Source: a bacterium (GTDB lineage: Bacteria > CSSED10-310). Taken from it: 64,000 nucleotides of DNA. Positions 2 through 43,977 of this stretch are shown here, piece by piece. The notes beneath the pieces were generated by a model. It was not told where the DNA came from, did not search any database, and saw nothing but the letters and a program-made list of their open reading frames with translations. The translations under genes were made by a program, and so were the position numbers. The stretch's first letter is position 1. Every line of letters begins with the position of its first letter. The stretch is taken from contig JBASEY010000033.1 in the NCBI GenBank assembly GCA_049652745.1, positions 20,159 through 84,158 of the forward strand, written 5' to 3'.

Positions 2-1780
2 GAACTGCTCGAGGCGGGAATGCAGAAGGATATTCGGCCGCTGGGTCGGTCGTCGCGCGGTCATGGAAGCGTGGCGGCGTACGATAACTCAAACCCGACG
101 CAATATTATTACGGCCCCGAAGAAGCCAATGTGCTGTATGCCGATGACATGCAACTGGCCGTAGCGGGAGGGGGATTGATGACAGCCTATGAGATCGGAT
201 TTTATACGGATGCGTCGGCTTCCTATCCGGTCACGGTCACCGCAAGGTTGTATAACGGGGCTCCCGACGGCGGAGGCACGGAGATTTCGGGCACGGCGAA
301 ATCCTGGACGATAACCGAGACCGGTTCCAATGCGTGGCTTTTAGTAAATGAACTGACTACGCCGATCACTATTCCGGAAACAGTCTATCTGGTCGTGTCG
401 TCGAACAGAGTAAATACCGGATGGATGGTATCTGGGCAAGCCAATTTAGGTTATACCGACGATTCATTTTGCCAAAAAATAAAGATTTGGATTTTCGAGT
501 TGTGGAGTTGTGGTCTAAGTTTCGAAGATGACGTTTGGGCCGGCTTCTATGCGACGATTTACCTCGATATGGAGCTCGATCCATGTGTGGAGTGTCCTCC
601 GGAAGGTGTTTTGGAGGGAGAGCCGCCTTGTGGAACGGGTTACGTCGACACCTATAACGGCGGCTGCAATAGTTCACCGGCGGTATTTCAACCGATTGCC
701 AACGGCGACATCATTTGCGGCCAGACCGGGACTTACGCGTTTGGTTCCGGCACCCATCGCGATACAGATTGGTTTGTGTTCACGTTGGCGGAAACCTCCA
801 TGGTCGAATGGCAGGCGTACGGCGAAGCTCCGATACAAGTCGCTTTGATCAAGCCTGGACTGGCGATTCCCGACGGATGTGCCGACCTGGAGGTCTTGGC
901 CGGCGCAATTTCCTATTACTGCGAACCGGCTCAGGTCCAATACTTATTGGATCCAGGAACATACTGGGCTTATGTGTCGATCAAATCAGGTTCCATTGGC
1001 TATCCTTGTGAAATTCCCTATGTCGCTGCGCTCAATTGGGGACCTGCGGCGTCGGAGACATGTGGTGCAGGAAGCATTTTTTCCCAACCTTTCGCCGGTG
1101 AAGTAGTCTACGTCAACTCAGATAACAATGCCGCCATATTGGCCGCTGATGATTTTTCCGGCGTGACAGCACCGATCAAGGTAGTGGAATGGTGGGGCGG
1201 CAACCTGAATAACAGCCCCAGTTGGCACGCCTGTTCCAAGCCCAACACGAATTTTGTCATCACATTTTACCAACCGGGCACGCTGCCGGGCTCTGTGGCA
1301 CGCCAGGAAACGGTGACGGCCACCCGTAGCGCCACCGGTCAGTACATATTCGGGAATGAAGGCTATGGATATAGTTATAAATACAGAGCTGAACTCGCCA
1401 CACCGCTCTCCTTATCCGCGGGCTGGATATCCATCGCTGCGGTCGACAGCGGAAGATGCTGGTTTATGTGGGGTGATGCCGGAGAGCCGCCGGCCAACGG
1501 CAGCCCTTACGTTCAAAACACGGGTAGTGGATGGGCGATAAGTACGGAACCGGATCAACACGTCGATCTGGCGTTCTGCTTGCTCGAAGAAGTCGTGATT
1601 CCAACGGAAACGCCTATTCCACCGACTGAAACGCCGATTCCGCCGACAAATACGCCGATCTCTCCGACAGAAACACCGGTACCTCCGCCCATTCCGTCCA
1701 CATCGCCTACCGGTCTATTTTTTGCATTGCTGGCGATCGGCATATTAATCGTATTGCCGGTATTGAGAAAAACGGTTTAA
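2..1780 (+). CDS. Secreted Cys-rich PPC-like surface protein, paralog A. It is 5'-partial because the frame is open to the window edge. The C-terminus is a Pro/Thr linker followed by a TM-anchor-like tail.
   Basis: Frame 2 is open from nt 2. One ~155-aa module has the Cys-rich motif CVECPPEG...CG..YVDTYNGGCNS...ICGQTG followed by RDTDWFVF...GTYWAYV (PPC-like D.DW[FY].F). The VEWWGGNLNNSP...NFVITFYQPG domain is shared with the paralog at 2368. The tail is (PTETPIP)x4-STSPTG-LFFALLAIGILIVLPVL-RKTV. Confidence 0.8.
   Translation, partial: ELLEAGMQKDIRPLGRSSRGHGSVAAYDNSNPTQYYYGPEEANVLYADDMQLAVAGGGLMTAYEIGFYTDASASYPVTVTARLYNGAPDGGGTEISGTAKSWTITETGSNAWLLVNELTTPITIPETVYLVVSSNRVNTGWMVSGQANLGYTDDSFCQKIKIWIFELWSCGLSFEDDVWAGFYATIYLDMELDPCVECPPEGVLEGEPPCGTGYVDTYNGGCNSSPAVFQPIANGDIICGQTGTYAFGSGTHRDTDWFVFTLAETSMVEWQAYGEAPIQVALIKPGLAIPDGCADLEVLAGAISYYCEPAQVQYLLDPGTYWAYVSIKSGSIGYPCEIPYVAALNWGPAASETCGAGSIFSQPFAGEVVYVNSDNNAAILAADDFSGVTAPIKVVEWWGGNLNNSPSWHACSKPNTNFVITFYQPGTLPGSVARQETVTATRSATGQYIFGNEGYGYSYKYRAELATPLSLSAGWISIAAVDSGRCWFMWGDAGEPPANGSPYVQNTGSGWAISTEPDQHVDLAFCLLEEVVIPTETPIPPTETPIPPTNTPISPTETPVPPPIPSTSPTGLFFALLAIGILIVLPVLRKTV
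1601..1684 (+). repeat. In-frame tandem repeat of four 21-nt units encoding (P-T-E/N-T-P-I-P/S)x4. It forms the linker before the C-terminal anchor of paralog A.
   Basis: Units ccaacggaaacgcctattcca, ccgactgaaacgccgattccg, ccgacaaatacgccgatctct and ccgacagaaacaccggtacct are directly visible. Confidence 0.8.
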
Positions 1781-2367: not shown

Positions 2368-4743
2368 ATGAAGAAAATGTTAATGTTAGGTTTTATCGTG
2401 CTGATTTTCTGTAGTTATGTCGCTGCGGAAACCGGCCAACTCAGCGCGAATACGCGCATAATTCAGCTCAATAGGATCGAAAAGAATATATTGAGCCCGC
2501 AGGTTTCTTCCGGCGATTGCAGTTCGGCATCGAGCTATCTTGCCAAATCAGACACGATCATCGAGAACCTGAGCCTGAACAAAATGGACTCGCCAATCAG
2601 CGCCGAGACAAAGCTGGATGCCCAGGTAATTCAGGAGCGGAACAGCCGTCAAAACTGTCCTGGTCTTCTGGCCTACAGCAATACTGACATCGAAGGTTAT
2701 TTTCCACCTGCGAACAACGTGAGCATAGCGGATGACATTATTTTGAATGTTGCGGGCGGAGGAGATCTGGTTTGCTATGAAATCGCATTTGCTTATGGAG
2801 CTTTCGTAGCCCCCCAAGTCAACGTCAACGCAGCCTTATACAATGGTCGTCCGGATCAGGGCGGGCAGTTGATTCCCGGCACCGAAGCAACGTGGGTGTT
2901 TGATTCCAGTGTTGAAGTGGGATATTATTACACCCTTACTGCAGAACTGGCAACGCCGGTTGCTATCCCGGAAATCGTTTTTCTTGTGATGAGTAAAAAC
3001 GCCGGTGGTAATGACAATGGATTTGCAGTTGCCGGAGCGGCGGAAATTGGGTATACGAACGATTGGTTTTGCATGCAAAATCCCGGCTGGATATGCGGCT
3101 ATTATTTCGGCGGCGACCCCTGGGCCGGATTTTTTGCAGAGTTGTATCTGGATATAGACCTGGAACCCTGTGTGACGTGTCCTCCCGGTGGGATCTTGGA
3201 AGCTGAACCGGCTTGCGGACCGGATTACGTGGATACCTACAATGGCGGTTGCAACAGTAACCCACCGGTTTTTCAGGCCATTTCCAGCGGGAACGTCATC
3301 TGTGGTCAGACCGGAGTGTTCGAAAACAGCGACTCGACCATTTCTCGTGATACCGATTGGTTCTCATTCACACTTGGCGAAGCCATGCTGGTCGAATGGG
3401 AAGTTTACGGTGAAGCTCCAATGCTTGCCGCAATTGCCAAACCGGGATCTGCCGGATGTGATGACTTTGAAGTTCTGGCCCTCGACACCGCAAATTATTG
3501 TGAAACTGTTTATCTTAGCGAAGTGTTGCCTGCGGGAACATACTGGGTTATCGCAATGGTCGATAATTTCTCAACATATTGGGAATGTGAAATTCCCTAT
3601 ATTGCATCGTTCAACACTATCAGCCTGACCCCGTGTGTGAGTTGTCCTCCCGGCGGTATTCCTGAAGGCGAACCTCCTTGCGGACCAAATTATAATGATA
3701 CGTTCAACGGCGGTTGCAACAGCACCCCATCCGTATTCCGACCTATTAGCAACAACAACGTCATCTGCGGCCAGACCGGTGTGTTCGATTATTCCGGAGA
3801 CACCTATCGTGATACCGATTGGTTTGTGTTCCAAGTCACTGAATACAGCTTGGTGGAATGGGAAGCCTACGGTGAAGCTCCAATGATGGTTGCTCTGATC
3901 GATCCGGGAGTAGCCATGCCCGATGGCTGCGCCGACATGTCGATTTTGGGTGTCGGCGTGTCACAGTACTGCGAAACCGCGACGATCAAACGCCTGGTGG
4001 AACCTGGCACGTATTGGGCTTTCGTATCGCTTGATACATTTAATGAATTCTTTGCTTGCGAGATTCCATATGTTGCTACGATTCACTGGGAACCTGCCGA
4101 TCCTGAAGACTGCGGTCCGGATACCATTTTCCCGCAGCCCTTTGCGGCGGAGGTCGTCTATGTCAATTCCGATGCCAATTCCGGTATCATCGTAGCGGAT
4201 GATTTTTCAGGTCTGACAGAGGCGATCACTGCGGTGGAGTGGTGGGGCGGCAACCTGAATAACAGCCCAACCTGGCATGGATGCACCAAACCCAATTCGA
4301 ATTTTGTCATCACCTTTTATCAGCCCGGAGCAGTTCCCGGGGCCGTCGTTTATCAGAAAACCGTCACAGCAGTTAAAACCCAGACCCTTCAGTTTGTATT
4401 TGGTAACACAGCTTACGGTCCTGTGATGAAATACAGAGCCGAGTTGCCGTCATCTGTCAGCATTCCCGCCGGGTGGATTTCCATTCAAGCTGTTGACAGC
4501 GGGACTTGCTGGTTCATGTGGGCTGATTCCGGAGCGCCGCCTGCCTCCGGCAGCGCTTTCGTTAGAGACTCAGGCTCAGGTTGGGAACTCGACGCGGAGC
4601 CAGATAATCAAGTTGATCTCGCTTTTTGCCTGATCGGCGGTGAACCACAACCCATTCCTGCCACATCACCCGTTGGTATCAGCATAGCATTGCTTGTCAT
4701 TGGAATTATGATCGCTCTGCCGATGCTGAGAAAATCTCTGTAA
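2368..4743 (+). CDS. Secreted Cys-rich PPC-like surface protein, paralog B. It has a signal peptide, two tandem ~155-aa modules, the conserved C-terminal domain and a TM-anchor-like tail.
   Basis: A GGGAGG RBS precedes an N-terminal MKKMLMLGFIVLIFCSYVAAETG. Two modules each carry C..CPPGG...CGP.Y.DT.NGGCNS...ICGQTGVF plus RDTDWF.F. The C-terminal domain resembles paralog A. The tail is SPVG-ISIALLVIGIMIALPML-RKSL. Confidence 0.85.
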   Translation: MKKMLMLGFIVLIFCSYVAAETGQLSANTRIIQLNRIEKNILSPQVSSGDCSSASSYLAKSDTIIENLSLNKMDSPISAETKLDAQVIQERNSRQNCPGLLAYSNTDIEGYFPPANNVSIADDIILNVAGGGDLVCYEIAFAYGAFVAPQVNVNAALYNGRPDQGGQLIPGTEATWVFDSSVEVGYYYTLTAELATPVAIPEIVFLVMSKNAGGNDNGFAVAGAAEIGYTNDWFCMQNPGWICGYYFGGDPWAGFFAELYLDIDLEPCVTCPPGGILEAEPACGPDYVDTYNGGCNSNPPVFQAISSGNVICGQTGVFENSDSTISRDTDWFSFTLGEAMLVEWEVYGEAPMLAAIAKPGSAGCDDFEVLALDTANYCETVYLSEVLPAGTYWVIAMVDNFSTYWECEIPYIASFNTISLTPCVSCPPGGIPEGEPPCGPNYNDTFNGGCNSTPSVFRPISNNNVICGQTGVFDYSGDTYRDTDWFVFQVTEYSLVEWEAYGEAPMMVALIDPGVAMPDGCADMSILGVGVSQYCETATIKRLVEPGTYWAFVSLDTFNEFFACEIPYVATIHWEPADPEDCGPDTIFPQPFAAEVVYVNSDANSGIIVADDFSGLTEAITAVEWWGGNLNNSPTWHGCTKPNSNFVITFYQPGAVPGAVVYQKTVTAVKTQTLQFVFGNTAYGPVMKYRAELPSSVSIPAGWISIQAVDSGTCWFMWADSGAPPASGSAFVRDSGSGWELDAEPDNQVDLAFCLIGGEPQPIPATSPVGISIALLVIGIMIALPMLRKSL
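3160..4089 (+). repeat. Two tandem 465-nt intragenic modules (3160-3624 and 3625-4089). A third copy lies in paralog A at about 575-1039.
   Basis: The protein-level repeats LEPCVTCPPGG...ASFN and LTPCVSCPPGG...ATIH are in register. At the nucleotide level they have diverged. Confidence 0.6.
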
Positions 4744-4801: not shown

Positions 4802-4816
4802 AAAAGGAGAATGACA

Positions 4817-6862
4817 ATGAAAAGCCTGTTTCGATATTCGATACTGTCGGTGCTGATTTTCAGCCTTTCCCCTATCTATGCTCAGACTTGGGTCGAGGTT
4901 ACCGATAAGTTGGGGCTGACCGGCACACCGTCCTTTCGGATTTCGATCGTCGATCTGAACGGGGACGACTATCCCGACTTAGTGGTTCATGACGCCGTCG
5001 ATCATGCAAATTGGGATGTCATGAACAAAATGTATGTTTATTTGAATGTGGAAGGCGATACATCAGGCACTCGCAAGTTCATCGATTTCACTGAAGAATC
5101 CGGTATTCGTGCCAACAGGCGCGGGACTAAAGACGGCCGTCACTCCGACCTGGCTATTTTCGGTGATATCAATAACGACGGTTATCCGGACTATTTTGCA
5201 GGCGTGTATTACCATCGTCATACGTTCATACCCGAAAATATCGAATGGCTCGATACCAGCGAAGTTTTCTTGAATGACGGCACTGGCCGCTTCACGTTGG
5301 TTCCGGATACGCTCTTCTTCGACGGTGGTCTGACCAATGTTTCAAGCGCAGTTTTCGCTGATTTTGACCGTGACGGCAACCTGGACCTATTAGTCGGCAA
5401 TTGGTTCACCAAATATTTCGGCGGAACCGGCGACGTGTTCGCTCCAGATCAACTTTTCCGTGGCAACGGTGACGGAACGTTTCAAGACATGTCGGGAACA
5501 TCTGGCATACAGAACCCGGAAGTTCTCCAGCCGACTTACGGCGCTGCCGTCGCCGATGTCGATGAGGACGGATATCCGGATATTTTCCTCGGCAATTACT
5601 GTCGAGACAAATCGAAACACCTTCGAAACAACGGCGATTGGACCTTTACTGAAATTCATGAAACGTCGAATTACGGTCAATATGTCGGTCCCGGCAACTG
5701 CGCCTCCCACACCTGTTCATGGGGTTCCATGCCGCGGGATTTCAACAATGATGGTCATATCGACCTGTTCACGATCCTTGTTCACGGCTGTAGAAAAGTG
5801 ATGTCGGCGCCTTTGATCAACGATGGCACCGGCGTTTTCACCTGGGATTTCGATTGTATCAAAAGCCGCCTGGACGATGATCCGGCCAAACTGCACCATG
5901 GCGATCATTTTGCGACCTGGGTTGACTGGAACAACGACGGACTTGTCGATTTGATCCTGTCTGAAAACGGTTATGACAACAACCGGTTTTATATTTTTCG
6001 CCATGAACCGGATCACACACTCCAAGTCATTACACCGTCAACAGCGATGAGTGTTTTGAATACGGAAAATGTCTCGGTTCATAATGTTTCCGTTTTTGAT
6101 TTCGACCTGGACGGCGACGATGACATCATCATCGGCTCCGGTGACGGCGGACCTCTCCGAGTCTTCAGGAATGATATCGGGAACGCCAAAAATCATTTGA
6201 CGGCTACACTGGTCGGGGCCGGCAAACCAGGATTCAGCAACACATCGGCTATCGGCGCCAAAATTCAAGTGACCTACGGCGACACTACAATCACCCGCGT
6301 CGTGCGAGCCGGCGACGGCCATTTCGGCCCTCAAGTCCCGTTCAGACTGAATGTCGGTTTGGATACCGCCGCGCAGGCTGACCTGGTCACAATCACCTGG
6401 CCTAATCTTAGCCAGGATGTCTACAAGCTCAAAAAAATACCCGCCAATTCGCACATACGAATTTATGAGAATCCCGATCCGATTAAAAACGCGTCCGGCA
6501 CACGCCTATTCATCCCCACCGCTCATGTAACGCCAGGGGACCGCTTCAGCGTTTGGAGCTATTTATACAACAATTCCACACAAACCATGAAAAAGATTCC
6601 TTTTATGGCTGTCTTGGAAGTCGCGGGTATGTATTGGTTCTGGAACACCTGGTCGGAAGATGTCGGATATGATATTGTCGATGTCGACCCAGGCGTGACC
6701 ATGATAAACATACTGCCGGAATTTCAGTGGCCGGATACCGGAGACGGATCATTTGACGGCATCAGGTTTTACGCTGCCATGCTGAACGACTCGATGGACG
6801 ATATCATCGGCGGTTTTGACGGTTTGGGCTTCGCGGAATTTGGTTACGGCCCGAAAAAATAA
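4817..6862 (+). CDS. CRTAC1-family secreted protein with FG-GAP beta-propeller repeats and an ASPIC/UnbV domain.
   Basis: A signal peptide MKSLFRYSILSVLIFSLSPIYAQT follows an AGGAG RBS, spaced for the ATG at 4817. FG-GAP loops include DLNGDDYPDLVV, FDRDGNLDLLVGNW, DVDEDGYPDIFLGNY, FNNDGHIDLF, WNNDGLVDLIL and FDLDGDDDIIIGSG. The UnbV-like segment is AIGAKIQVTYGD...HFGPQ...VTITWPN. Confidence 0.8.
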   Translation: MKSLFRYSILSVLIFSLSPIYAQTWVEVTDKLGLTGTPSFRISIVDLNGDDYPDLVVHDAVDHANWDVMNKMYVYLNVEGDTSGTRKFIDFTEESGIRANRRGTKDGRHSDLAIFGDINNDGYPDYFAGVYYHRHTFIPENIEWLDTSEVFLNDGTGRFTLVPDTLFFDGGLTNVSSAVFADFDRDGNLDLLVGNWFTKYFGGTGDVFAPDQLFRGNGDGTFQDMSGTSGIQNPEVLQPTYGAAVADVDEDGYPDIFLGNYCRDKSKHLRNNGDWTFTEIHETSNYGQYVGPGNCASHTCSWGSMPRDFNNDGHIDLFTILVHGCRKVMSAPLINDGTGVFTWDFDCIKSRLDDDPAKLHHGDHFATWVDWNNDGLVDLILSENGYDNNRFYIFRHEPDHTLQVITPSTAMSVLNTENVSVHNVSVFDFDLDGDDDIIIGSGDGGPLRVFRNDIGNAKNHLTATLVGAGKPGFSNTSAIGAKIQVTYGDTTITRVVRAGDGHFGPQVPFRLNVGLDTAAQADLVTITWPNLSQDVYKLKKIPANSHIRIYENPDPIKNASGTRLFIPTAHVTPGDRFSVWSYLYNNSTQTMKKIPFMAVLEVAGMYWFWNTWSEDVGYDIVDVDPGVTMINILPEFQWPDTGDGSFDGIRFYAAMLNDSMDDIIGGFDGLGFAEFGYGPKK

Positions 6863-6954: not shown

Positions 6955-8640
6955 ATGAAACGTTTTATATTTGTTACGATTATTTTCGCTTTGTCATCTT
7001 CTTCGGTGAGTTTCGCGCTGTTTCCTCGTGCTGAATTTCCGAAACCGTTGAACCCGGTAATCCGCGATTGTGATCGCTGGGATCTTCTGGTTGTCAAATT
7101 TCGTGAAAACACGGGGATTCGCCTTCGAAACGCGGATTTTGTATCGAAAAACAATGTCGATTTGACTGCGCTTTTTGAGCTTTTATCGTCTTATCCTGAA
7201 GTCAGATATGAACGATTATTTCGTCGTCCGGAGTATGTCTATGAAAATGAGAAACGCACTGGAGAACGACGAGTAGGACGTCAATTAGCGGATTTGAATC
7301 TGTATTTCGCTTTCGGACCTCCGGACAGGGAAACCGCGGAACGGTTATTAGTTGATTTAAACGCCTTGGAAATCGTGGAATGTGTTTACCCCGAGCCGAT
7401 TCCTCAGCTTGCTTTCATGCCCTCGGCCGGAAAGCGTGTTTTGCCGCCTTCGTATGTCCAGTATCAGGGCTACCTGAACGCTTCCCCGGTCGGTGTCGAT
7501 GTCGCCGCAGCACGCTCTTATCCAGGGGGTCGTGGAGAAAATGTCCGGATGATCGATGTTGAGCTGGCTTGGCGGTGGACACATATCGATCTGCCGACAC
7601 CTTTTTATCAAGGCGGTGTTCCATCGCAATTAGTGGACTACCGTCATCATGGAACAGCCGTGATGGGGATTATAACCGGTGTTGAAAACACCTATGGTAT
7701 AACAGGGATAGCTCCGTTAACCGAGGTCGGTGGTCAAGCGATAAATGAAGGTGACTGGCCTGAAAATGTCGGAACTTACTTTGACACAGCTTCCGCCGCC
7801 CTTGAACCGGGAGATATCTGGCTGATCGAATTGCATGGTCCTGGCCCTGCTGGTGATTACATACCAATGGAGTGGTGGCAGGCAAATTATGATGCGATCG
7901 CCAACTCCACCGCTCAAGGACGCATCTGCGTCGAAGCCGGCGGTAACGGCTCGGCAAATCTGGACGATTCCATCTACCAGGGCAAATTCAATCGATCCAC
8001 CAGGGATTCTTTAGCCATCATGGTCGCAGCCGGAACACCCTACAACATGAATCCTGAGTGGTTCACGAATTACGGGTCACGCATGGATGCAAACGGTTGG
8101 GGTTCCGCAATCTATACTACCGGCTACGGTGACCTTTATTCAGCAGGAGGCGAAGATTACTATTATACTTCTGATTTCGGCGGGACATCGGGAGCATCTC
8201 CGATCGTGGTAGGGGTTTGCTGCCTCGCCCAGTCCATTTACAAAGAGCTGACCGGAGGTGAAATACTGGACCCGGCCACTCTGCGAGCCGCCATTACAGA
8301 AACCGGCGCTCCCCAACCAAGCCCCGCCACCCAGTATATCGGTCCTCGTCCGAATCTGGCGGAATTATTGCTTCACGATATTTTCCAGCTCGAACCGACG
8401 CCGACACCCGTCCCAAGTAATACCCCGACGCCCGACTGTATCAATGACGGCGATGTCAATTTTGACGGCATCATATCCACTGCTGACGCGCAATTGACGT
8501 TCCTCATCGCAATCGGTCAATACTCCCCGACCTATCTTGAGGAATGTGCTGCAGACTGCAACGGCGACGGCTTGGTCACATCAGAAGATGCACAACTGGT
8601 TTTCTTGACAAGTTTAGGCACCGCAACCTGTGTGGATTAG
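6955..8640 (+). CDS. Secreted subtilisin-like (S8-type) serine peptidase with a C-terminal Pro/Thr linker and a tandem dockerin-like module.
   Basis: A signal peptide is present. The motifs are in D/H/S order: Asp in IDVE, His in HGTAVMGI, then AGGNGS and Ser in GTSGASP. The linker is PTPTPVPSNTPTPD. Two Ca-loop-plus-helix repeats follow: DVNFDGIISTADAQLTFL and DCNGDGLVTSEDAQLVFL (D.N.DG.....D). Confidence 0.7.
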   Translation: MKRFIFVTIIFALSSSSVSFALFPRAEFPKPLNPVIRDCDRWDLLVVKFRENTGIRLRNADFVSKNNVDLTALFELLSSYPEVRYERLFRRPEYVYENEKRTGERRVGRQLADLNLYFAFGPPDRETAERLLVDLNALEIVECVYPEPIPQLAFMPSAGKRVLPPSYVQYQGYLNASPVGVDVAAARSYPGGRGENVRMIDVELAWRWTHIDLPTPFYQGGVPSQLVDYRHHGTAVMGIITGVENTYGITGIAPLTEVGGQAINEGDWPENVGTYFDTASAALEPGDIWLIELHGPGPAGDYIPMEWWQANYDAIANSTAQGRICVEAGGNGSANLDDSIYQGKFNRSTRDSLAIMVAAGTPYNMNPEWFTNYGSRMDANGWGSAIYTTGYGDLYSAGGEDYYYTSDFGGTSGASPIVVGVCCLAQSIYKELTGGEILDPATLRAAITETGAPQPSPATQYIGPRPNLAELLLHDIFQLEPTPTPVPSNTPTPDCINDGDVNFDGIISTADAQLTFLIAIGQYSPTYLEECAADCNGDGLVTSEDAQLVFLTSLGTATCVD

Positions 8641-24176: not shown

Positions 24177-25205
24177 GTGAACAACGATTCCAATACAGCA
24201 CATTCATTTCCACATTTTCAGTCGATTATGGACAGCATCGACAATCTGCCGGGGCATCGCATACTTGTTTTGGGGGACATCATGGTAGATGAATATATTT
24301 GGGGCGAAGTCATGCGGATCAGCCCTGAAGCTCCTGTTCCGGTGGTTCATGTTCAAAATGAGACGATGCAATTAGGCGGTGCGGCAAATGTCGTGCATAA
24401 TTTAAAATCTTTGGATGCCGAAGTCGAGTTGGTAGGTGTGATAGGGTCTGACGATCTTTCCAGAAGAGTTCTGGCGGCCTTGGATCGACTACAGATCGGC
24501 CATTCGGGAATCAGATTGATCCAGAATCGGGAGACGATCCGAAAAACCCGTATAATCGCTCACAATCAACAGGTAGTACGAGTCGACCATGAGAAAATTC
24601 TTCCTCTGGAGCCGGAAGTGGAAACATTTTTGATCGATTATTGTTTACATCGTTTGCGGGAAGTCGAGGCGGTGATCATCTCAGATTATGCAAAGGGGAC
24701 CTTGACTAAAAGACTGGTTCAATCCGTCATTCAGGCCTGTCGGAAAATGGGTAAAATTTGTGCGGTCGATCCTCGGGTAAAAAACCATGAATTTTATGTC
24801 GGTTGTTCCGTCATCACTCCCAACCATCTGGAAGCGGCTTTGATGACGGGTATTGCGATGGACTCCGACTGGGACCGAGCGCTTCAGCAGGCTGGTAAAC
24901 AGTTGTTGTCCTCACTTGCAACCGATGCCGTGCTGGTCACTTGTGGCGAAAGAGGAATGGCGATTTTTCTACCGGATGAACCTGCTCAACACATCGATAC
25001 CGTTGCGCAAAGTGTTTTCGATGTCACCGGTGCAGGCGATACGGTCATCAGCGCTTTGACCCTGGGTTTGACAGGCGGTTTGAGCTATTCTGAAGCCGCC
25101 GTTCTGGCAAACTTCGCCGCTGGTATCGTCGTTGGAAAAGTCGGGACGGCAACCGTTACTCTCAATGAAATAAAAAAAGCGGTTCGATTGTATGCACGTT
25201 GCTGA
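24177..25205 (+). CDS. hldA: D-glycero-beta-D-manno-heptose-7-phosphate kinase. This is a stand-alone HldE domain I, in the PfkB family.
   Basis: ILVLGDIMVDEYIWGEVMRISPEAPVPVV and the PfkB C-terminal motif DVTGAGDT are present. GTG start with an AGGAGG RBS. Length 342 aa, with no adenylyltransferase domain. Confidence 0.8.
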   Translation: MNNDSNTAHSFPHFQSIMDSIDNLPGHRILVLGDIMVDEYIWGEVMRISPEAPVPVVHVQNETMQLGGAANVVHNLKSLDAEVELVGVIGSDDLSRRVLAALDRLQIGHSGIRLIQNRETIRKTRIIAHNQQVVRVDHEKILPLEPEVETFLIDYCLHRLREVEAVIISDYAKGTLTKRLVQSVIQACRKMGKICAVDPRVKNHEFYVGCSVITPNHLEAALMTGIAMDSDWDRALQQAGKQLLSSLATDAVLVTCGERGMAIFLPDEPAQHIDTVAQSVFDVTGAGDTVISALTLGLTGGLSYSEAAVLANFAAGIVVGKVGTATVTLNEIKKAVRLYARC

Positions 25206-25956
25206 TTCAAAAGCCAAATCCGTCTTGGTCATTCCAGCCCGGTATGCCTCGACCCGCTTCCCAGGCAAACCATTGGCTCTTATCGACGGCATCCCGATGA
25301 TCGTACGTGTTCTGAATCAGGCAAAAAAAGTCAGGCGTGTATCCAAAATCGTTGTGGCCACCGATCATGACGATATTCGATCGACCGTGGAAAACGCCGG
25401 CGGATATGTCGTTATGACATCGTCGGATATTGCCACCGGTACTGACAGAGTGGCTGCCGCCGCTGCCGACATAGACTGTGATATCGTCGTCAATCTGCAA
25501 GGTGATGAACCATTGATAAATCCTGATCACATTACTCAAGCCATCGAAGACCTTCAATCCGACCCCGGGGCCGACATGGCGACCTTGGCTTGCCCGGTGC
25601 ATGACCCGGCGGATATTCTTAATCCCAATGTCGTCAAAGTGATCATTGACGCATCGAGTTATGCCGTCTATTTTTCCCGGGCTCCCATCCCCTATACGGC
25701 GGATGCCGTGCCGACGGACTGGAAATTTTATCTCAGACACATCGGGCTTTACGTATTCAAACGGTCTTACTTGTATAAATTTGTCTCTTTAGAACAGGCC
25801 TGGAGCGAAAAAGTAGAAAAACTCGAGCAGCTCCGTGCTCTGCATCATGGCGGAATTATTCGCGTATCCTTGGTCGATTCGATGAGTCCAGGGGTGGATA
25901 AACCCGAAGACATTGCTATAATAGAACAATTACTGCGTAAACAAAGTGAACGCTAA
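25192..25956 (+). CDS. kdsB: 3-deoxy-manno-octulosonate cytidylyltransferase (CMP-Kdo synthetase).
   Basis: [27 protein letters not shown] and [11 protein letters not shown]. Confidence 0.9.
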
Positions 25957-25975: not shown

Positions 25976-27583
25976 ATGGAAACTAAGTACATTTTTGTAA
26001 CCGGTGGAGTTGTATCTTCGTTGGGCAAAGGGATTGCCTCGGCGGGGATTGGAGCGCTGCTTGAAAGCAGAGGGTTTCGCGTCACACACTTAAAATTCGA
26101 TCCTTATTTGAATGTCGATCCAGGCACCATGAGCCCGTTACAACATGGCGAAGTTTTCGTCACCGATGATGGCGCCGAAACCGATCTCGACTTGGGTCAT
26201 TATGAGCGGTTTACTCAATCGACTATGAAGCAAGCGAACAATGTCACGGCTGGGGCGATTTACAACACTATTCTTACGAAAGAAAGGCGGGGTGACTTTC
26301 ATGGTGGAACCGTTCAGGTTGTGCCGCATGTCACTGATGAAATCAAAAACAGAATAACAAAGCTGGCGCCTGGATTCGATGTCGTCATTGTCGAACTCGG
26401 CGGCACGGTTGGAGATATCGAAAGTCTTCCGTTTTTAGAAGCGATCCGCCAGTTCCGGTACGATGTCGGCCCGGATAATACGCTGTATGTGCATCTGACT
26501 TTAGTCCCATATATTCGGGCGGCACGTGAGATCAAAACCAAACCCACTCAACACAGTGTCAAAGAATTACGCGAAATCGGTATTCAACCCGATATCCTAC
26601 TCTGCCGAACTGAAATGCCTCTCAGCGACCAGATAAAACGAAAGATATCTCTGTTTTGCAACGTGGACACACGCGCCGTCATCGCAGCGCCCGATGTCGC
26701 CAGTATTTATCAAGTCCCGCTGGAATATGCCCGGGAGGAACTGGATGACCTGGTGATCGAAAAGTTACGATTGCCGAATTTGCCACCCAATTTAGACGAA
26801 TGGAAGTCAATTGTTCACACGCTCAATTACCCGAAACACAAAGTGCGCATTGCTGTTGTCGGCAAATATGTGCTTTTAAAAGATTCTTATAAAAGTCTTG
26901 CTGAGGCTTTCATCCATGGCGGTATAGCCAATGAAACTCAAGTGGATTTGAATTGGATCGATTCCAGCCAGTTTGAAAAACACGGGCCGGAAACTCTTCT
27001 GAAAGGTCACAGCGGTATTCTTGTTCCTGGAGGTTTTGGGGATCGGGGTGTCGAGGGTAAAATTCTTGCCGTCCAATATGCTCGCGAACACCGAATACCT
27101 TATTTTGGTATCTGTCTGGGTATGCAAGTTGCCATCATAGAATTTTGCAGAAACATCTGTGGCTTGGAGGATGCCAACAGCACAGAATTCAATGAAAACA
27201 CGTCAAACCCTGTTATCGATCTGCCTACGGGCCAAGATAAACAAGCGAAGATGGGGGGTGCTCTTCGACTGGGAGCTTATCCTTGTCATTTGATGGATAA
27301 CACCATCGCTCGAAAAACATATGGCAGCGAAATCATCTCCGAGCGGCACCGGCATCGTTACGAATTCAACAATACCTACAGACAGTTGATTGAGGACCAT
27401 GGCATGATCATCAGTGGAGTATCCCCAGATAAAAGCCTGGTGGAAATAGTTGAAATCAAGGACCATCCCTGGTTTGTCGCCGTGCAATACCGCCCGGAAT
27501 TCAAATCATCTCCGCGCAAACCCCATCCGCTGTTTGTCGCTTTTATCAAAGCTGCACTGGAAGAGAGTGAATGCCAAGGCTGA
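25976..27583 (+). CDS. pyrG: CTP synthase.
   Basis: N-terminal [24 protein letters not shown]. The glutamine amidotransferase region is [12 protein letters not shown]...GICLGMQ. AGGAG RBS. Confidence 0.95.
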
Positions 27584-28503
27584 AATTGTTATGGAAAGCA
27601 TTCAAACGCCGGTCAATAGGAATCATTGTCCTTTCCGTCGCATATATCATCGCCAGGGTTCCGCAAAAATATGCCGATTTTCTGGCGAGATTTTTAGGCA
27701 AAGCCGTGTATCGCCTATCGAAAAAAACACGTGAAAGAATTTTAAACAATCTTATTTTGGTTTACGGCGATTCAATGGATGAGCATGTACGCCATGAAAT
27801 GGCGCTTAAAATTTGTTTAAACTTGGCGTTTCACATCGTAGAATCCGTACGTTTAGCCGTCATTGGCCCCGAGATGGTACGAATGATGATCGATGACAAT
27901 CAATGTGAGGAAATTCTTAACGCACACCTGGAAGCGGGAAAAAGCATCATGATCGTCACCGCTCATTATGGAAACTGGGAGCTTTTTGCTGCCAGAATCG
28001 CACAAATAGCGCCGTTGACTGTTCTGGCTCGAAGAAACAACAATCCATATATCGAAGCAGCTATCGCTCGTGCCAGAGAAAAACATCGTGTCAGAGTGTT
28101 GGATAGAAGCGATCCGGGGACACCGCGGGAAATGATTCAAATGGGACATGAAGGCGGCCACATAGTTGGAATCCTTGTCGACCAGGACACGATCAAGATT
28201 CAAGGGATATTTTCAAACTTTATGGGCTTGCCGGCATTGACGCCAAGCGGCCCGGCGGCTGTTGCTATACGTCAACTATTCACGGTTTTTATCGGGGTCT
28301 TGAAACCGATAGCAGACCATAAACACAAAATTATCTTGAACGGTCCGATCCCTATCCCGACGAATGGATCGAGGGAACAAAAAATTCAACTTCTCACCGA
28401 TATATTCAATCAACATTTAAGCGATATTATATTAGAAGACCCTCTATATTGGGTCTGGAATCATCGTCGATGGCGCCATAGACCGGAAGCGAGCGGGAAC
28501 TGA
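27571..28503 (+). CDS. lpxL: Lipid A biosynthesis late acyltransferase, LpxL/HtrB family.
   Basis: An N-terminal TM segment. The HX4E motif is HYGNWE. The family architecture is present. The gene overlaps the pyrG stop. Confidence 0.75.
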
Positions 28504-33472: not shown

Positions 33473-34603
33473 TCATTTATAGGCTTTTTCAACGCCGGAT
33501 TTCTGCCACAAATCGATATAGAAATTTTCAGTCCGGCGAACCATTTCCTCCATTGAAAAAGATTGCGCGATCCGGAGAGATTCCCGGCCCATTCGAAGGC
33601 GGGTTTCCGGATTGTTCACGATTGTTCTCAAAGCTTCGATAAAAGCTTTGCTGTCCGACGGTGGTACCAATAGCCCGTTTATTTCATGCCGTATGGCTTC
33701 AGGATTGCCCCCGACAGCAGTTGTGACAATAGGCAGGCCACATGCCATGGCCTCGATCAAAGCATTTGAAAAACCTTCTTTTAAGGATGGCATAACAAAT
33801 ATATCCAAAGCCCGATAAAAATCACGCGTATCATTCGTGAATCCAAGCAGATGAAAAAAATCCAAAGCGCCGACACTTTGCGCATACTCGAGTAATTCTT
33901 GTCTCAAAGGTCCATCTCCGGCAATATAAAAATGTACTCCCGCATTTTGAAAATCCGGATCTGCCGCAGCTTCAACTAGAACGTGAAGAGCCTTGATCGG
34001 CATTAAGCGCGCGGCACATCCCACTTTCAGATTCCCGTCGAAAATGGGAGTGTCATCGTCTTTACCGGGACAAAAAAATCGAGTGTCCACTCCGTTATAG
34101 ATAACCTTTTGGCGCGATTCCGGCAATGAAATCCGCTCGATATAATTCTGTCTGACGCTTTCGGATACAAATACCGTACAGTGCCTAAACCTACTGACAA
34201 TTCGGTCTGTAAAAATCTGGCCGGCATCATCCCAGCCTTCAATAGTATGTATGTTAGCGACAATGACAGGTGTTCCTGCTATCTTTGCCGCAACAGTTCC
34301 AGAAATATTCGCCCGGTACATATGTGTATGAACAATATCAATTTTTTGCTCTTTGAGATATTTTCCAAGCTTCCACAAGCCCTTCGGCGACCAACGGGAA
34401 GAAATCGGTTTTTCAATAACCGGAATGCCTTTTTGAACAAGCTCCGGGGCTAGTTCACCAGCAGATTTCAAGCAAACAACCCTGGCTTCGAAACGCGATT
34501 TATCCAATAACGGCAACAGCGTTGTAAGTTTTTTTTCTACCCCTCCCGGCCACAGACCGCTGATAATCCTTGCTACTTTTAAAGGTCTATTGGGCTCTTT
34601 CAT
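33473..34603 (-). CDS. Glycosyltransferase family 4.
   Basis: The GT4 C-terminal motif is EGFSNALIEAMACGLPIVTTAVGGNPE. Confidence 0.8.
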   Translation of the reverse strand: MKEPNRPLKVARIISGLWPGGVEKKLTTLLPLLDKSRFEARVVCLKSAGELAPELVQKGIPVIEKPISSRWSPKGLWKLGKYLKEQKIDIVHTHMYRANISGTVAAKIAGTPVIVANIHTIEGWDDAGQIFTDRIVSRFRHCTVFVSESVRQNYIERISLPESRQKVIYNGVDTRFFCPGKDDDTPIFDGNLKVGCAARLMPIKALHVLVEAAADPDFQNAGVHFYIAGDGPLRQELLEYAQSVGALDFFHLLGFTNDTRDFYRALDIFVMPSLKEGFSNALIEAMACGLPIVTTAVGGNPEAIRHEINGLLVPPSDSKAFIEALRTIVNNPETRLRMGRESLRIAQSFSMEEMVRRTENFYIDLWQKSGVEKAYK

Positions 34604-34604
34604 A

Positions 34605-35726
34605 TCAATTCGATGTGCCCTCTGTTCCGCTCAGCAAGTTTTCATACACAGCCGCTGTCTTGCGAACCGTTTCGCGTATATCGAACACGGTTTCGACACG
34701 TTTCCGACCTGCTTTACCCATGATAAGCCGTTGCTCGGAACTATCGATCAAATCGGCGATTTTTTCCGCCATTGCAGATGGATTCCGGATCGGTGTAAGC
34801 CAGCCGGTCACGCCGTCGACAACAACCTCTGGAATTCCGCCGGCACGTGTCGCAACAACAGGTTTCGCCATGGCCATGGCATCCAGAATAGACGTGCAAA
34901 GACCCTCCATTTTTGAACTCATACAGAAAATATCACTTGCAGCAAGTATATGTTTGATATCGTTTCGAAATCCAAGCATCAGAAATCGATCTTTTAGAGG
35001 CGACTTGTGGACAGCGTTCTGCAGATCGTTCCAGAGTTCACCGGCTCCGATTAAAAGAAAAACCGCTTGCGGATATCTATCAGCAAGTAGCTCGGATGCT
35101 CTGAAAAAAGTCAAAGGGTCTTTGTGTGGAGCCAAAGCGGCAACCATGGTCACCAGCACTTTTTCGAAGTCCAAGCCCAGTTCGGAACGCACTGCTTTAC
35201 CTTTGTCATCAGGCTCGAAGGCTCTGACATCGATTCCGCTGTAAATCGTTTCAACCTTGTCGGATGGAACTCCGTCGGCAATTAGAATATTTTTTATGGC
35301 ATTGGAGACAGCTAAAATTTTGTCGGCTCCGATAAGATATTTTTTCACAGAAAAATTCATGAAACGTGTTTTCAGCGGAAAATCCGTTCTTTTTGAGTAA
35401 ACCACTTTTAAAGGGCGCCTACAAAAGAATTTGGCTAATGCGGCGGAAATCAGGCCGTGTGAAGTATGTACATGAAAAATATCAGCGCCATAGGTACGGG
35501 CGCCTTTCCAGAGGTCCTGAAACTGCCGAAAAGAAATCTCGCCTGTCGATCTGAGTATAATAGCAGGGATTTCCATCGAACGGACTTTATCCATCAGGGC
35601 GCTTTTCAGCGGCGCTGCGACGATAGACCGAACACCATGCTCAGAGAGGTGGCGAACAAGATGAAACACCTGCCCTTCGCCCCCTCGCCAGGTGCGTTCG
35701 GTATTGACATGGACGACAGTTATCAT
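34605..35726 (-). CDS. Glycosyltransferase family 4.
   Basis: EGLCTSILDAMAMAKPVVATRAGGIPEVV. The stop abuts the start of the next GT4 gene (TGATATG). Confidence 0.8.
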   Translation of the reverse strand: MITVVHVNTERTWRGGEGQVFHLVRHLSEHGVRSIVAAPLKSALMDKVRSMEIPAIILRSTGEISFRQFQDLWKGARTYGADIFHVHTSHGLISAALAKFFCRRPLKVVYSKRTDFPLKTRFMNFSVKKYLIGADKILAVSNAIKNILIADGVPSDKVETIYSGIDVRAFEPDDKGKAVRSELGLDFEKVLVTMVAALAPHKDPLTFFRASELLADRYPQAVFLLIGAGELWNDLQNAVHKSPLKDRFLMLGFRNDIKHILAASDIFCMSSKMEGLCTSILDAMAMAKPVVATRAGGIPEVVVDGVTGWLTPIRNPSAMAEKIADLIDSSEQRLIMGKAGRKRVETVFDIRETVRKTAAVYENLLSGTEGTSN

Positions 35727-35926
35727 TTGCCGCTGTTTTTGCCGGAATCTATCGAAACAGCTTCATCGATCATCATGACAGGAATATCGTCGATTATCGG
35801 GTATACCAATCGACAAGCATAACAAACCAAACCATCTTTCTTTTCCGTCAGTTCCAATTCGCCTTTACAGGCGGGACACACCAGAATGTCAAGCAGTTCT
35901 TTATCTATTGCCATGTAAACCTCCAT
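35723..35926 (-). CDS. ycaR: Trm112/YcaR-family small zinc-ribbon protein (UPF0434).
   Basis: LLDILVCPACKGEL...GLVCYACRLVYPIIDDIPVMMIDEA. Confidence 0.7.
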   Translation of the reverse strand: MEVYMAIDKELLDILVCPACKGELELTEKKDGLVCYACRLVYPIIDDIPVMMIDEAVSIDSGKNSGK

Positions 35927-36866
35927 CCATTATCGACTTCAACCAGTCGATTTCCTTCGCCAACCCGTCTTTCAACGATATTTTTGGTTCATATCCTAGA
36001 GCATCGGCGGCAGCGGAGATATCCGCGGCTGTATGCCGAACATCACCTTTCTGGGTCCCTTCCTTCTGCAAGTTCAAAGGGATGCCCAGCAGATCCTCAA
36101 TGATGGTGATCACTTTATTCAAACTGATCCTGGAACCTCCACCGATATTCAAAACACGCCCTGATAGTCCAGGTAGTATTCCAGCATTGTAGGTAGCATC
36201 GACAGCATCTGCGACAAAGGTAAAATCGCGAGTTTGACTGCCGTCGCCATATATTGTCAAAGGGCGGTTTTCCAACGCTGAACGGATAAACTTGTGAAAA
36301 GCCATGTCGGGGCGTTGGCGCGGGCCGAAAACAGTGAAATATCGCAATGAAACCGTTGGAAGGCCATAATTCACCGTATAGAGAATACACAGGTTTTCAC
36401 CGGCTAATTTGCTGACGCCGTAAGGTGAAATCGGTCGAGGACAAACATGCTCACTCATTGGAAAAGCGTCCACATCGCCATATACAGATGATGACGATGC
36501 ATAAATCAAGCGCTGAACACCCGCTGTCCGAGCAGCTTCCAACACACGCTGGGTCCCCAATATATTGAAATCCGTGTATATACTGAACTGGCTGCCCCAA
36601 CTGGATCTGACGCCGGCCTGAGCTGCCAGATGGAAAATGACATCCGCGTTTTTTACGATTGAACTTATATCTTCTTTGACAATATTTATCGGAAAAAACC
36701 TGAAACGTCGGTTTTTACGGCAACAATTAAGGTTGTTTTCTTTGTATTCTCGGGGATAATAATCCGTAAAACAGTCTATTCCAATGACATCATGCCCTTC
36801 CGACAGAGCTTTTTCCGCTAAATGCGATCCAATAAATCCCGCAACACCGGTAATCACAATTTTCAT
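35901..36866 (-). CDS. NAD-dependent epimerase/dehydratase, an extended SDR of the UDP-glucuronate decarboxylase / UDP-sugar 4-epimerase type.
   Basis: Rossmann fold KIVITGVAGFIGSHL. The catalytic YxxxK is in SPYGVSKLAGE. Confidence 0.8.
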   Translation of the reverse strand: MKIVITGVAGFIGSHLAEKALSEGHDVIGIDCFTDYYPREYKENNLNCCRKNRRFRFFPINIVKEDISSIVKNADVIFHLAAQAGVRSSWGSQFSIYTDFNILGTQRVLEAARTAGVQRLIYASSSSVYGDVDAFPMSEHVCPRPISPYGVSKLAGENLCILYTVNYGLPTVSLRYFTVFGPRQRPDMAFHKFIRSALENRPLTIYGDGSQTRDFTFVADAVDATYNAGILPGLSGRVLNIGGGSRISLNKVITIIEDLLGIPLNLQKEGTQKGDVRHTAADISAAADALGYEPKISLKDGLAKEIDWLKSIMDGGLHGNR

Positions 36867-36868
36867 GT

Positions 36869-37915
36869 TTATTTCTCCAGATTCAGTTCCCAGCCGGGGC
36901 CTGTGCGTCCAATCAAATCAGCATGCAACGATCCGATTCGAACTTTGATTTGCAACTTCAACGGAACTGCTATCGTTTCGTCTGACAACCAGAATACAAC
37001 CTCGCTGCGCCTTTTCTCAAACATCCTGCCTTCCCATGTTGGAAGTGGTCTTCCCTGCAGCACCCGTCGGCTGATATTATCCGCCAAAGATAGAGGTGTT
37101 GTCGACGAAAACGTTATTTCAACAGGATAATTGCTTTTACCCTCCGAATTACTGTTCATTCGAACAACGGTGTTATCCCCCGGCTTAAATCTTCGCATGG
37201 CGTAAACACAAGCTATCGGATCCTTGCTGTTGGGCGGCAAATCATGCTCATGATCACCGGTCCAGGCCTTTCGCCGCCCTTGATCATAACGGGTTTCTTG
37301 AAACTTCCTGTATTTTCCTTCCCGCACATTTTTACTGTAGTAAATGGAATTGAACGTTTCTGGATCCATGATGCTCGTGAATACATCCCTAACTTTGAAA
37401 AAAGTAGAAAACGTCTTATTCGTCTCACCGGTTACAATAACCTTATATACCGCTTTTCCGTCATAATCAGATTGGGCATCCAGTTTCATCGTTATCGTAC
37501 CGGCGTTTATTCCCATCCATGATACTCTGTACGTCAAAGTTTCGCCTTCAGTGAAAATCGGGTTTTCCAACCGATGCTGAATATCTTTCCAGCTAAAAAA
37601 AGGGTTCTCTTCCATAAATACCGGCATATCGAATGAATCTTCATCAATATTTATCTGCTCTGTAGTCGTATTTTTATTTTGCAAATTTTCCATTTCTAAA
37701 TTTTCAGACTTGTCTTGATTCAAAAAATTCTGCATATCGTTATCCATCGATGTCAAATCGGTCGAAGCGCCGGCAATAGAATTTGAGATGTCCTCAATAA
37801 AGCCGTGTCCCAACACAAGCGAGAGAATGACAAACATCAGAAACAGCGACCGAAAGCGGGGTTCAATTCTGTTGTTCTTGTAAAATTGATGCCAAAACAA
37901 AAACATTCCTTTCAT
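36869..37915 (-). CDS. Signal-anchored hypothetical protein, possibly DUF3108-like, embedded in the LPS operon.
   Basis: The ATG at 37915 gives MKGMFLFW...RSLFLMFVILSLVLG. The track's TTG at 38020 would overlap rfaF by 47 nt. The family assignment is unsure. Confidence 0.45.
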   Translation of the reverse strand: MKGMFLFWHQFYKNNRIEPRFRSLFLMFVILSLVLGHGFIEDISNSIAGASTDLTSMDNDMQNFLNQDKSENLEMENLQNKNTTTEQINIDEDSFDMPVFMEENPFFSWKDIQHRLENPIFTEGETLTYRVSWMGINAGTITMKLDAQSDYDGKAVYKVIVTGETNKTFSTFFKVRDVFTSIMDPETFNSIYYSKNVREGKYRKFQETRYDQGRRKAWTGDHEHDLPPNSKDPIACVYAMRRFKPGDNTVVRMNSNSEGKSNYPVEITFSSTTPLSLADNISRRVLQGRPLPTWEGRMFEKRRSEVVFWLSDETIAVPLKLQIKVRIGSLHADLIGRTGPGWELNLEK

Positions 37916-37973
37916 TAAAAAATCGGCTGTTAGTCTGGGAATCGAGTATTCGGCGCCAGTCAATCTTAATGTT

Positions 37974-43725: not shown

Positions 43726-43977
43726 TAAAGCTGAAATAAATGGCAACAAGCTTTCTGTAAACCCGAATCGATTACTGAAAAATATAAACTCGATTAATCT
43801 TGTACAAGACACAAAATCGGTTAGTGGACTTGATATTTTTGATTCAAGTATCGCAATAATGCAATAAACAACGTGCTTCTTTTTTTACGTACAGGCAAAA
43901 TCATTGACAGATCGGCTTCAAAAAAGATAGAATTAAAGCTGATTAGCGTGTTTTTTTTGGAAAAAGGAGAATGTGTA

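Follow-up and report, generated by a model that had tools for sequence, protein, structure and literature searches.

Which proteins a bacterium shows on its surface is determined by C-terminal sorting tags. To date, the recognition of each new tag has led to an enzyme dedicated to it, namely sortase, exosortase, archaeosortase, rhombosortase, or myxosortase. The signal IPTL-CTERM has the consensus IPTLSEWG, and to our knowledge no processing enzyme is known for it. An S-layer protein of Methylomirabilis bears IPTL-CTERM, and its C-terminal tail is the one part of that protein unseen by proteomics (PMC8671808). Here we analyze a stretch of 64,000 nucleotides from a bacterium of the CSSED10-310 lineage (GenBank assembly GCA_049652745.1, contig JBASEY010000033.1, positions 20,159 to 84,158 of the forward strand; 46% G+C), referred to below as the window, in which two paralogous genes (paralogs A and B) encode proteins that end in a tail of related design. 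Both are recorded at NCBI as hypothetical proteins. The family to which their tails belong is called IPATGP-CTERM here for convenience. We hold with moderate confidence that these tails belong, as divergent members, to a tripartite sorting/anchoring domain of the C-terminus that lies outside the curated models, and that their helix is removed by a membrane-embedded enzyme.

The two paralogs share a common C-terminal layout of motif, 17-residue hydrophobic helix, and R-K-x-x, which is read directly from the translations and agrees with an earlier, sequence-only reading of this DNA. Paralog A ends ...EEVVI-(PTETPIP PTETPIP PTNTPIS PTETPVP)-P-PIPSTSPTG-LFFALLAIGILIVLPVL-RKTV and paralog B ends ...GGEPQ-PIPATSPVG-ISIALLVIGIMIALPML-RKSL, each followed by the stop codon (Table 1). 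That reading had taken S-P-[TV]-G as the conserved motif, which proved too short: the signature common to both tails comprises the nine residues P-I-P-[AS]-T-S-P-[TV]-G. The frame of paralog A is open from window position 2, and its full form is protein P0005 (656 amino acids [aa], with a signal peptide). Paralog B and P0005 have Sec-type signal peptides, and a crude hydropathy scan places hydrophobic segments at their N- and C-termini only. In an AlphaFold2 prediction for the last 235 residues of P0001, a homolog 98% identical to paralog B, residues 212-231 form a single helix that comprises PVG and the hydrophobic stretch and is preceded by a disordered linker. Fold searches with the last ectodomain gave generic beta-sandwich matches only, from low-confidence models. 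One relative with 50% identity, P0003, is encoded in a metagenome-assembled genome (MAG) assigned to “candidate division CSSED10-310.”

Besides the two paralogs, no open reading frame (ORF) of at least 100 aa in the window has a hydrophobic C-terminal tail. A six-frame translation of the window contains two instances of P[IV]P[AST][TS]xPxG, where 0.005 would be expected, but these two are not independent because the genes are paralogs; support beyond chance for the tail comes from other proteins. A profile of seven tails (A1) was used in a HMMER search of 1.84 billion representative proteins and found 40 at E<=1e-3, and all 40 matches lie at the extreme C-terminus, ending no more than 9 residues from it. 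The tail is a homology domain confined to this position. The sequence-only reading had proposed building a hidden Markov model (HMM) of the tail, and a local HMM run on 3398 ORFs does separate tails (35-55 bits) from all non-tail ORFs (<9 bits), on a scale that is partly circular because most of the tails were in the seed. Paralogs A and B score 37.9 and 44.1 bits, respectively, and three non-seed tails (two in locus L019 and one in L022) score 49.0-53.1 bits. With its own profile the family reaches 35-59 bits.

Other searches gave smaller returns. Tail-only searches of a word-indexed database of 5.8 billion proteins yielded 0 matches in one case and only protein P0164 in the other; E-values are too harsh at that database size. 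A metagenome scan with [PL][PQ]PIP[AS]T[SGT]P[IVT] gave 422 stretches, of which only 4, though informative ones, were confirmed by tblastn, and a scan of genome contigs with the C-terminal domain gave 4 loci. None of 58 pattern matches in viral contigs was confirmed.

The consensus of 46 distinct tails is T-P-x-P-[IV]-P-[ATS]-T-G-P-x-G-[LI]-G-[LI]-L-L-L-A-[LI]-S-[GA]-L-L-G-x-S-x-L-R-R-[RK]-K. Within it, P2 is kept in all 46 tails, G8 in 45, P0 and P6 in 44 each, T4 in 41, and G10 in 38, and S17 and G/A18 within the helix are also conserved. Positions 1-4 read [IV]-P-[ATS]-[TS], with L never at position 4, and position 5 is the most variable of the motif (G33, S6, D3, T2, E1, Q1). No tail has a Cys in the motif region, and acidic residues (D or E) are absent from the stretch that joins the motif to the basic cluster. 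The helix starts directly after P-x-G with no hydrophilic spacer; 12-19 uncharged residues follow the motif G up to the basic cluster, and a mean of 3.4 R/K residues lies at the tail end. Pro/Thr-rich (PT) linkers precede most tails. The signature is thus conserved well beyond the two paralogs, contrary to the possibility, raised in the sequence-only reading, of a tail with no conserved motif.

The proteins that carry the tail otherwise have little in common. BLASTP alignments of paralog B with four other proteins are restricted to the tail (tail-only matches in Table 1), and further carriers combine it with different domains. Genome GCA_008633355.1 encodes at least six carriers at three loci, some of them sharing shuffled modules, and in its S8 protease the tail is the sole part in common with other carriers. 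At least two carriers lie side by side in the CSSED10-310 MAG JAFGLW01 (Zod_Metabat.419), to which P0164 belongs, such that the tail is present in multiple copies in single genomes. It is also interchangeable with other endings: the tail is present in just 8 of 120 paralog B homologs, whereas other homologs, in other phyla, end in modules of the T9SS (type IX secretion) or dockerin type. Distant tail-bearing homologs retain [IV]-P-x-[ST]-x-P-x-G at ~30% identity in the adjacent domain. In protein P0006, an ectodomain and PT linker like those of the paralogs are followed by a different C-terminal module of 125 aa, which replaces the tail.

Carrier topology is uniform. Among 47 proteins, a signal peptide is present in 30 of the 30 carriers with a plausible recorded start, the other 17 being fragments or untrimmed ORF translations, and no internal hydrophobic 17-mer was found in any of the 23 complete family proteins. 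Tail-only homology among carriers and related features are the criteria that established PEP-CTERM and GlyGly-CTERM as sorting signals (PMC3237569; Haft, bioRxiv 10.1101/2023.06.07.544157). Portability, multiple copies in related genomes, and use as an optional suffix are among those criteria, and the tail is probably a signal of this kind. The tripartite sorting-signal design suspected from the two window copies is borne out as a portable C-terminal domain on unrelated signal-peptide proteins. The named carriers belong to phylum CSSED10-310, which is predicted to be Gram-negative (PMC8248873), and as far as seen, the tail occurs only in rare uncultured diderm bacteria.

In the mechanism that we propose, carriers would be exported by Sec, after which the helix would retain them in the inner membrane, with the R/K tip on the cytoplasmic and the Pro-rich motif on the periplasmic side. 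Recognition of P-I-P-x-T-x-P-x-G and of the small residues conserved in the helix would then fall to a dedicated membrane-embedded endopeptidase or transpeptidase. This enzyme, which may be an exosortase, an archaeosortase, a rhombosortase, or IPTL-CTERM's own enzyme, would remove the helix, and the ectodomain would pass to a new anchor for display at the cell surface. Its gene would lie elsewhere in the genome. A membrane-embedded enzyme is favored over a sortase because no hydrophilic spacer separates motif and helix, because G10, S17, and G/A18 are kept inside the helix, and because P6 and G8 are better conserved than T4 and G5. In those passages of Haft (bioRxiv 10.1101/2023.06.07.544157) that treat the spacer, multi-pass membrane enzymes are the partners of signals in which the helix follows the motif without one, whereas LPXTG signals have a hydrophilic one. 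It seems distinctly unlikely that the partner is a new class of sorting enzyme, belonging to none of the sortases, exosortases, archaeosortases, rhombosortases, and CPBP myxosortases and possibly shared with IPTL-CTERM.

For every member of the family, removal of the helix by such an enzyme is so far a proposal, and several observations weigh against it. The window organism has two carriers, both of them paralogs, within ~74 kb of genome, and their tails diverge from the consensus in that S occupies position 5, G10 is absent, only two residues are basic, and the helix contains a Pro, so that the window copies could be degenerate. Furthermore, a Pfam scan of 44 window ORFs (all those of at least 150 aa outside longer ORFs) gave no match to Sortase, Exosortase_EpsH, Rhomboid, or CPBP, and none of the five scanned ORFs without any Pfam match is a multi-pass membrane protein. 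The tail-gene neighborhoods examined comprise 15 other distinct loci plus the window, ~300 kb without duplicate loci; 12 of the 15 were read with Pfam annotation, and L007-L009 were screened by hydrophobic-segment count and sortase-motif pattern alone. No sortase, exosortase, rhomboid, or CPBP gene was found around the tail genes at the 15 loci. In sorting systems in which one enzyme serves many substrates, however, the enzyme gene need not adjoin the substrate genes, and its absence near the tail genes is therefore weak evidence.

Candidates for the processing enzyme were considered at individual loci and were dropped or, in one case, left unassigned. A cluster of membrane proteins in L011, including one with DUF6754, does not recur at the other loci examined. 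An L013 protein of 621 aa with ~7 hydrophobic segments, encoded 3.8 kb from two tail genes, has a C-terminal TPR as its sole Pfam match; it belongs to no family, has no PDB relative, and was found at one locus only, so that it stays an unassigned candidate for a membrane enzyme. An M50 peptidase encoded 4 kb from the tail gene in L004 is likewise confined to a single locus. In L025, a polyprenyl synthase operon lies beside the gene for P0163, but both of its unfamiliar genes encode soluble proteins, and it does not recur.

A plain uncleaved anchor is an unlikely explanation of the tail, although it accounts for part of the evidence. The protein would be a type I inner-membrane tether, and the Pro motif would be a rigid stalk and helix cap spread by domain shuffling. 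Such a stalk would be a natural extension of the PT-rich linkers, and the carriers are mosaics that exchange modules, so that a module which they have in common is not necessarily a signal. The lack of a processing enzyme in the tail-gene neighborhoods also speaks for it. However, a plain anchor constrains hydrophobicity, not the near-invariant P, P, P, and G and the fixed small helix residues seen across dissimilar proteins. It would also lock modules of extracellular type (S8 protease, cohesin, dockerin, MAM, GEVED, and PPC) in the periplasm of a diderm, whereas homologs in other phyla have surface-display modules of the T9SS or dockerin type at the position of the tail. Moreover, of the signals of the same design named by Haft (bioRxiv 10.1101/2023.06.07.544157), those that have been tested experimentally are all cleaved.

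The sequence-only reading had found no known class of signal that fits the tail. This stands insofar as no full-length carrier reaches a cut-off in Pfam (a copy with newest entries from 2025) or NCBIfam (release 20.0, June 2026), and neither the window proteins nor their isolated tails have a relevant match in these collections even at E<=10. A set of 44 isolated tails gave weak matches, most commonly to LPXTG_anchor (TIGR01167; 18 tails at E<=1, best E 0.011) and IPTL_CTERM (TIGR04174; 16 tails at E<=1, best E 2e-6), with a scatter of other CTERM models below these.

The first of these models bears on whether the tails are sortase substrates, in which [IV]-P-x-T-G would act as an LPXTG-type motif with cleavage between T and G and linkage to peptidoglycan or to another subunit. 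Motifs of the IPxTG type do serve pilin-specific class C sortases, and [IVLF]-P-[ATS]-[TS]-G is present in 33 of the 46 tails. However, the alignments inspected for LPXTG-type models span the helix and basic part and leave out the motif. The one full-length match to TIGR01167 among ten proteins scanned (12.1 bits; cut-off, 15.9 bits) covers model positions 13-32 of 34, and the matches to Microco_LAVTG cover positions 10-34 and 15-34, again the helix and basic part. Matches of isolated tails to PF00746 (cut-off, 20 bits) have E>=0.0079, and several newer sortase-signal models match isolated tails weakly. The would-be P1' residue is the least conserved position 5, which is S in both window copies, whereas the better-conserved P6 and G8 lie downstream of the would-be cleavage site, and the spacer of typical LPXTG signals is missing. 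Sortases are, in the passages of Haft (bioRxiv 10.1101/2023.06.07.544157) that concern their distribution, described as mostly lacking in bacteria that have an outer membrane, and the window organism makes lipid A; nor was a sortase gene found in the window or at the 15 other loci. We therefore regard a sortase substrate as very unlikely.

The diderm nature of the host, which the sequence-only reading had assumed, follows from the genes of the window itself, which include a cluster for lipid A, 3-deoxy-D-manno-octulosonic acid (KDO), and the core of lipopolysaccharide (LPS), as well as a gene for LolA. The window also encodes an S8 subtilase that bears a type I dockerin at its C-terminus and a 1703-aa FG-GAP/VCBS-repeat protein with Big_5 that lacks the family tail. 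Dockerin-type ends are also encoded at two of the related loci. Because these ends recur and one L013 protein combines S8, GEVED, dockerin, and cohesin, a cohesin-dockerin surface assembly is suggested for this diderm candidate phylum.

Paralogs A and B are the second and third of three tandem paralogs; the first, P0006, is encoded just upstream of the window. All three have the same type of signal peptide and the same domains and differ in their C-terminal endings, and upstream of this trio lies an RND efflux operon. The ending of P0006 belongs to a second C-terminal module without a family assignment, of ~125 aa, which follows PT-rich linkers, is always C-terminal, and has motifs such as ...LLDVxGxYWFWPxW...FxWP...xFYAAMxD.... 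Apart from it, the carriers (an FG-GAP protein, an M14 carboxypeptidase, and a paralog of A) are unrelated to one another. A local HMM of the module gives 74-171 bits, and AlphaFold2 predicts an all-beta sandwich with low confidence, for which Foldseek matches are generic. The module may serve the lineage as a further means of secretion or anchoring. Beside tail genes at three related loci, giant fusion proteins are encoded; those in L019 and L022 join a Ser/Thr kinase, AAA_16, TPR, GAF, and a sigma-54 activator, and the L021 form has kinase, AAA, and TPR without the activator domain. Their position beside tail genes may reflect conserved synteny or regulation.

Table 1. Coordinates of the tails, their carriers, and other features of the window and related loci
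Feature	Location	Coordinates	Strand	Remarks
Paralog A	Window	2..1780	+	5' end cut by window edge; ATG at 20, stop 1778-1780
P0005 (full form of paralog A)				Signal peptide, N-terminal domain, one Cys-rich PPC-like domain, jelly-roll DUF7901-like domain, PT linker, tail
Pro/Thr-rich linker of paralog A	Window	1601..1684	+	Four imperfect PTETPIP heptads
Tandem repeat	Window	1600-1687		21 bp x 4.2; encodes the paralog A heptads
Antisense ORF	Window	1555-1743	-	62 aa of GVSVG repeats; mirror of the PT-repeat coding region, no gene
Tail A signature motif	Window	1688..1714	+	P-I-P-S-T-S-P-T-G
Tail A hydrophobic helix	Window	1715..1765	+	LFFALLAIGILIVLPVL; 17 aa, zero charged residues
Tail A basic end	Window	1766..1780	+	RKTV 1766-1777, with stop codon to 1780
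Paralog B	Window	2368..4743	+	791 aa; signal peptide 2368-2430; then N-terminal domain, two Cys-rich PPC-like domains, jelly-roll DUF7901-like domain, tail
Tail B signature motif	Window	4651..4677	+	P-I-P-A-T-S-P-V-G
Tail B hydrophobic helix	Window	4678..4728	+	ISIALLVIGIMIALPML
Tail B basic end	Window	4729..4743	+	RKSL 4729-4740, with stop codon to 4743
Tail-only match to paralog B	L013	3119..7780		S8 subtilase with GEVED, dockerin, cohesin
Tail-only match to paralog B	L013	7796..10099		
Tail-only match to paralog B	L011			Repeat protein with long PT linker
Tail-only match to paralog B	L001			GEVED protein
Tail carrier P0168				MAM and LTD domains
Tail carriers P0011, P0167				P-domain directly ahead of tail
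Tail carrier	L022			DUF6923
Unassigned enzyme candidate	L013	13941..15806	-	621-aa protein
KdsB	Window	25192-25956		
Lipid A, KDO, LPS-core cluster	Window	27571-28503 and 33473-43558		LpxL-like (two), LpxB, KdtA, LpxK, heptosyltransferase, DUF3108, two GT4 enzymes, epimerase
S8 subtilase	Window	6955-8640		C-terminal type I dockerin
FG-GAP/VCBS-repeat protein	Window	43873-48984		1703 aa, Big_5
Dockerin-type end	L017	7928..8593		
Dockerin-type end	L019	661..1146		
~125-aa module	Window	6479-6859		In FG-GAP/ASPIC protein 4811..6862
~125-aa module	L005	6977..9511		P0006
~125-aa module	L019	14067..15218	-	
~125-aa module	L001	6616..7836		
~125-aa module	L013	15963..18695		
~125-aa module	L025	15121..16761	-	
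~125-aa module	L025	16930..18888		
Giant fusion protein	L019	16082..21439	-	With sigma-54 activator
Giant fusion protein	L021	2210..5803	-	
Giant fusion protein	L021	20138..21910		
Giant fusion protein	L022	6182..10183	-	With sigma-54 activator

In CSSED10-310 and related uncultured bacteria, the tag marks proteases, cohesin/dockerin proteins, and large proteins resembling adhesins, and an HMM from alignment A5 would allow the annotation of carriers and a search for the enzyme by phylogenetic profiling. Another CTERM signal as such would not surprise specialists; this one, however, is an orphan whose sharp motif makes a search for the enzyme directly testable. If the partner were a new class of enzyme, the sharp motif and the narrow, sporadic distribution of the tail would provide a clean handle for profiling, and a route of surface display in diderm candidate phyla would come into view.

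The nearest described family is IPTL-CTERM, because TIGR04174 aligns over its whole length, motif included, and lands just under its cut-off for some relatives. Here the claim that the tail resembles no known class needs to be qualified. Against a TIGR04174 cut-off of 20.5 bits, end-to-end alignments (positions 1-27 of 27) reached 19.8 bits for P0176, 20.4 bits for the L011 protein, and 13.8 bits for P0164, and PF18203 (gathering score, 20.8 bits) gave 24.6 bits for the isolated tail of the L011 protein and 17.1 bits for the full protein. In both motifs, I-P at the start is followed eight residues later by G just before the helix. The tail could thus simply be IPTL-CTERM (TIGR04174/PF18203) in a divergent lineage, with only the weak score being new. 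We give this little credence. Full-length proteins stay below both cut-offs, the window proteins have no match at E<=10, and 28 of the 44 isolated tails have no match to TIGR04174 at E<=1. The tail also has its own sharply conserved P0, T4, P6, G10, and S17 and reads I-P-A-T-G-P-x-G rather than I-P-T-L. By the curated tests it is no member of IPTL-CTERM but a separate variant that has a signature of its own.

Compared with the described systems, a sorting signal that would be cut by a membrane-embedded enzyme shares different features with each. Signals of the MYXO-CTERM and related Cys type, which are processed by myxosortase, are also tripartite and lack a spacer, but they require an invariant motif Cys (Haft, bioRxiv 10.1101/2023.06.07.544157), and its absence from all 46 tails excludes them. 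The LPXTG signals of sortases are likewise tripartite, and they share with the tail carriers that have signal peptides and number several per genome, as well as the [IV]-P-x-T-G found in most tails; they differ in their hydrophilic spacer, in the G of TG, which is variable in the tail and replaced by S in the window, and in the tail's stronger retention of P6 and G8. GlyGly-CTERM, the signal of rhombosortase, also has a diderm host and small helix-breaking residues at the helix's outer end (G-P-x-G-L-G in the tail), and the homology of its carriers is confined to the tail (PMC3237569). Its motif is a Gly/Ser-rich GG, in contrast to the Pro-rich motif here, and GlyGly_CTERM (TIGR03501) matches 1 of the 44 isolated tails (E=0.046).

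In PEP-CTERM, the signal of exosortase, and in PGF-CTERM and VPXXXP-CTERM, those of archaeosortase, a Pro motif abuts the helix and a Gly is conserved within it, as in the tail. These systems are likewise many-to-one, the secreted proteins being heterogeneous, and their signal may occur as an optional suffix. The tail has no P-E-P or P-G-F, although [IV]-P-x-x-x-P literally fits the name VPXXXP. PEP_CTERM (TIGR02595) matches 9 of the 44 isolated tails at E<=1 (best, 0.024) and PF07589 matches 1 of 44 (E=0.086); neither a VPXXXP nor a PGF model figures among the 25 listed families with matches to isolated tails. No exosortase gene is present in the window, although the window holds a cluster of LPS and glycosyltransferase genes. 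With IPTL-CTERM, the tail shares the tripartite C-terminal design, a motif that starts with I-P, a helix without a preceding spacer, and diderm hosts. It differs in its signature, I-P-[ATS]-T-G-P-x-G in place of I-P-T-L, and in its hosts, which are uncultured bacteria of the CSSED10-310 type rather than Proteobacteria or NC10. The signature of the tail is thus new, and the kind of tripartite sorting signal to which it belongs is well known.

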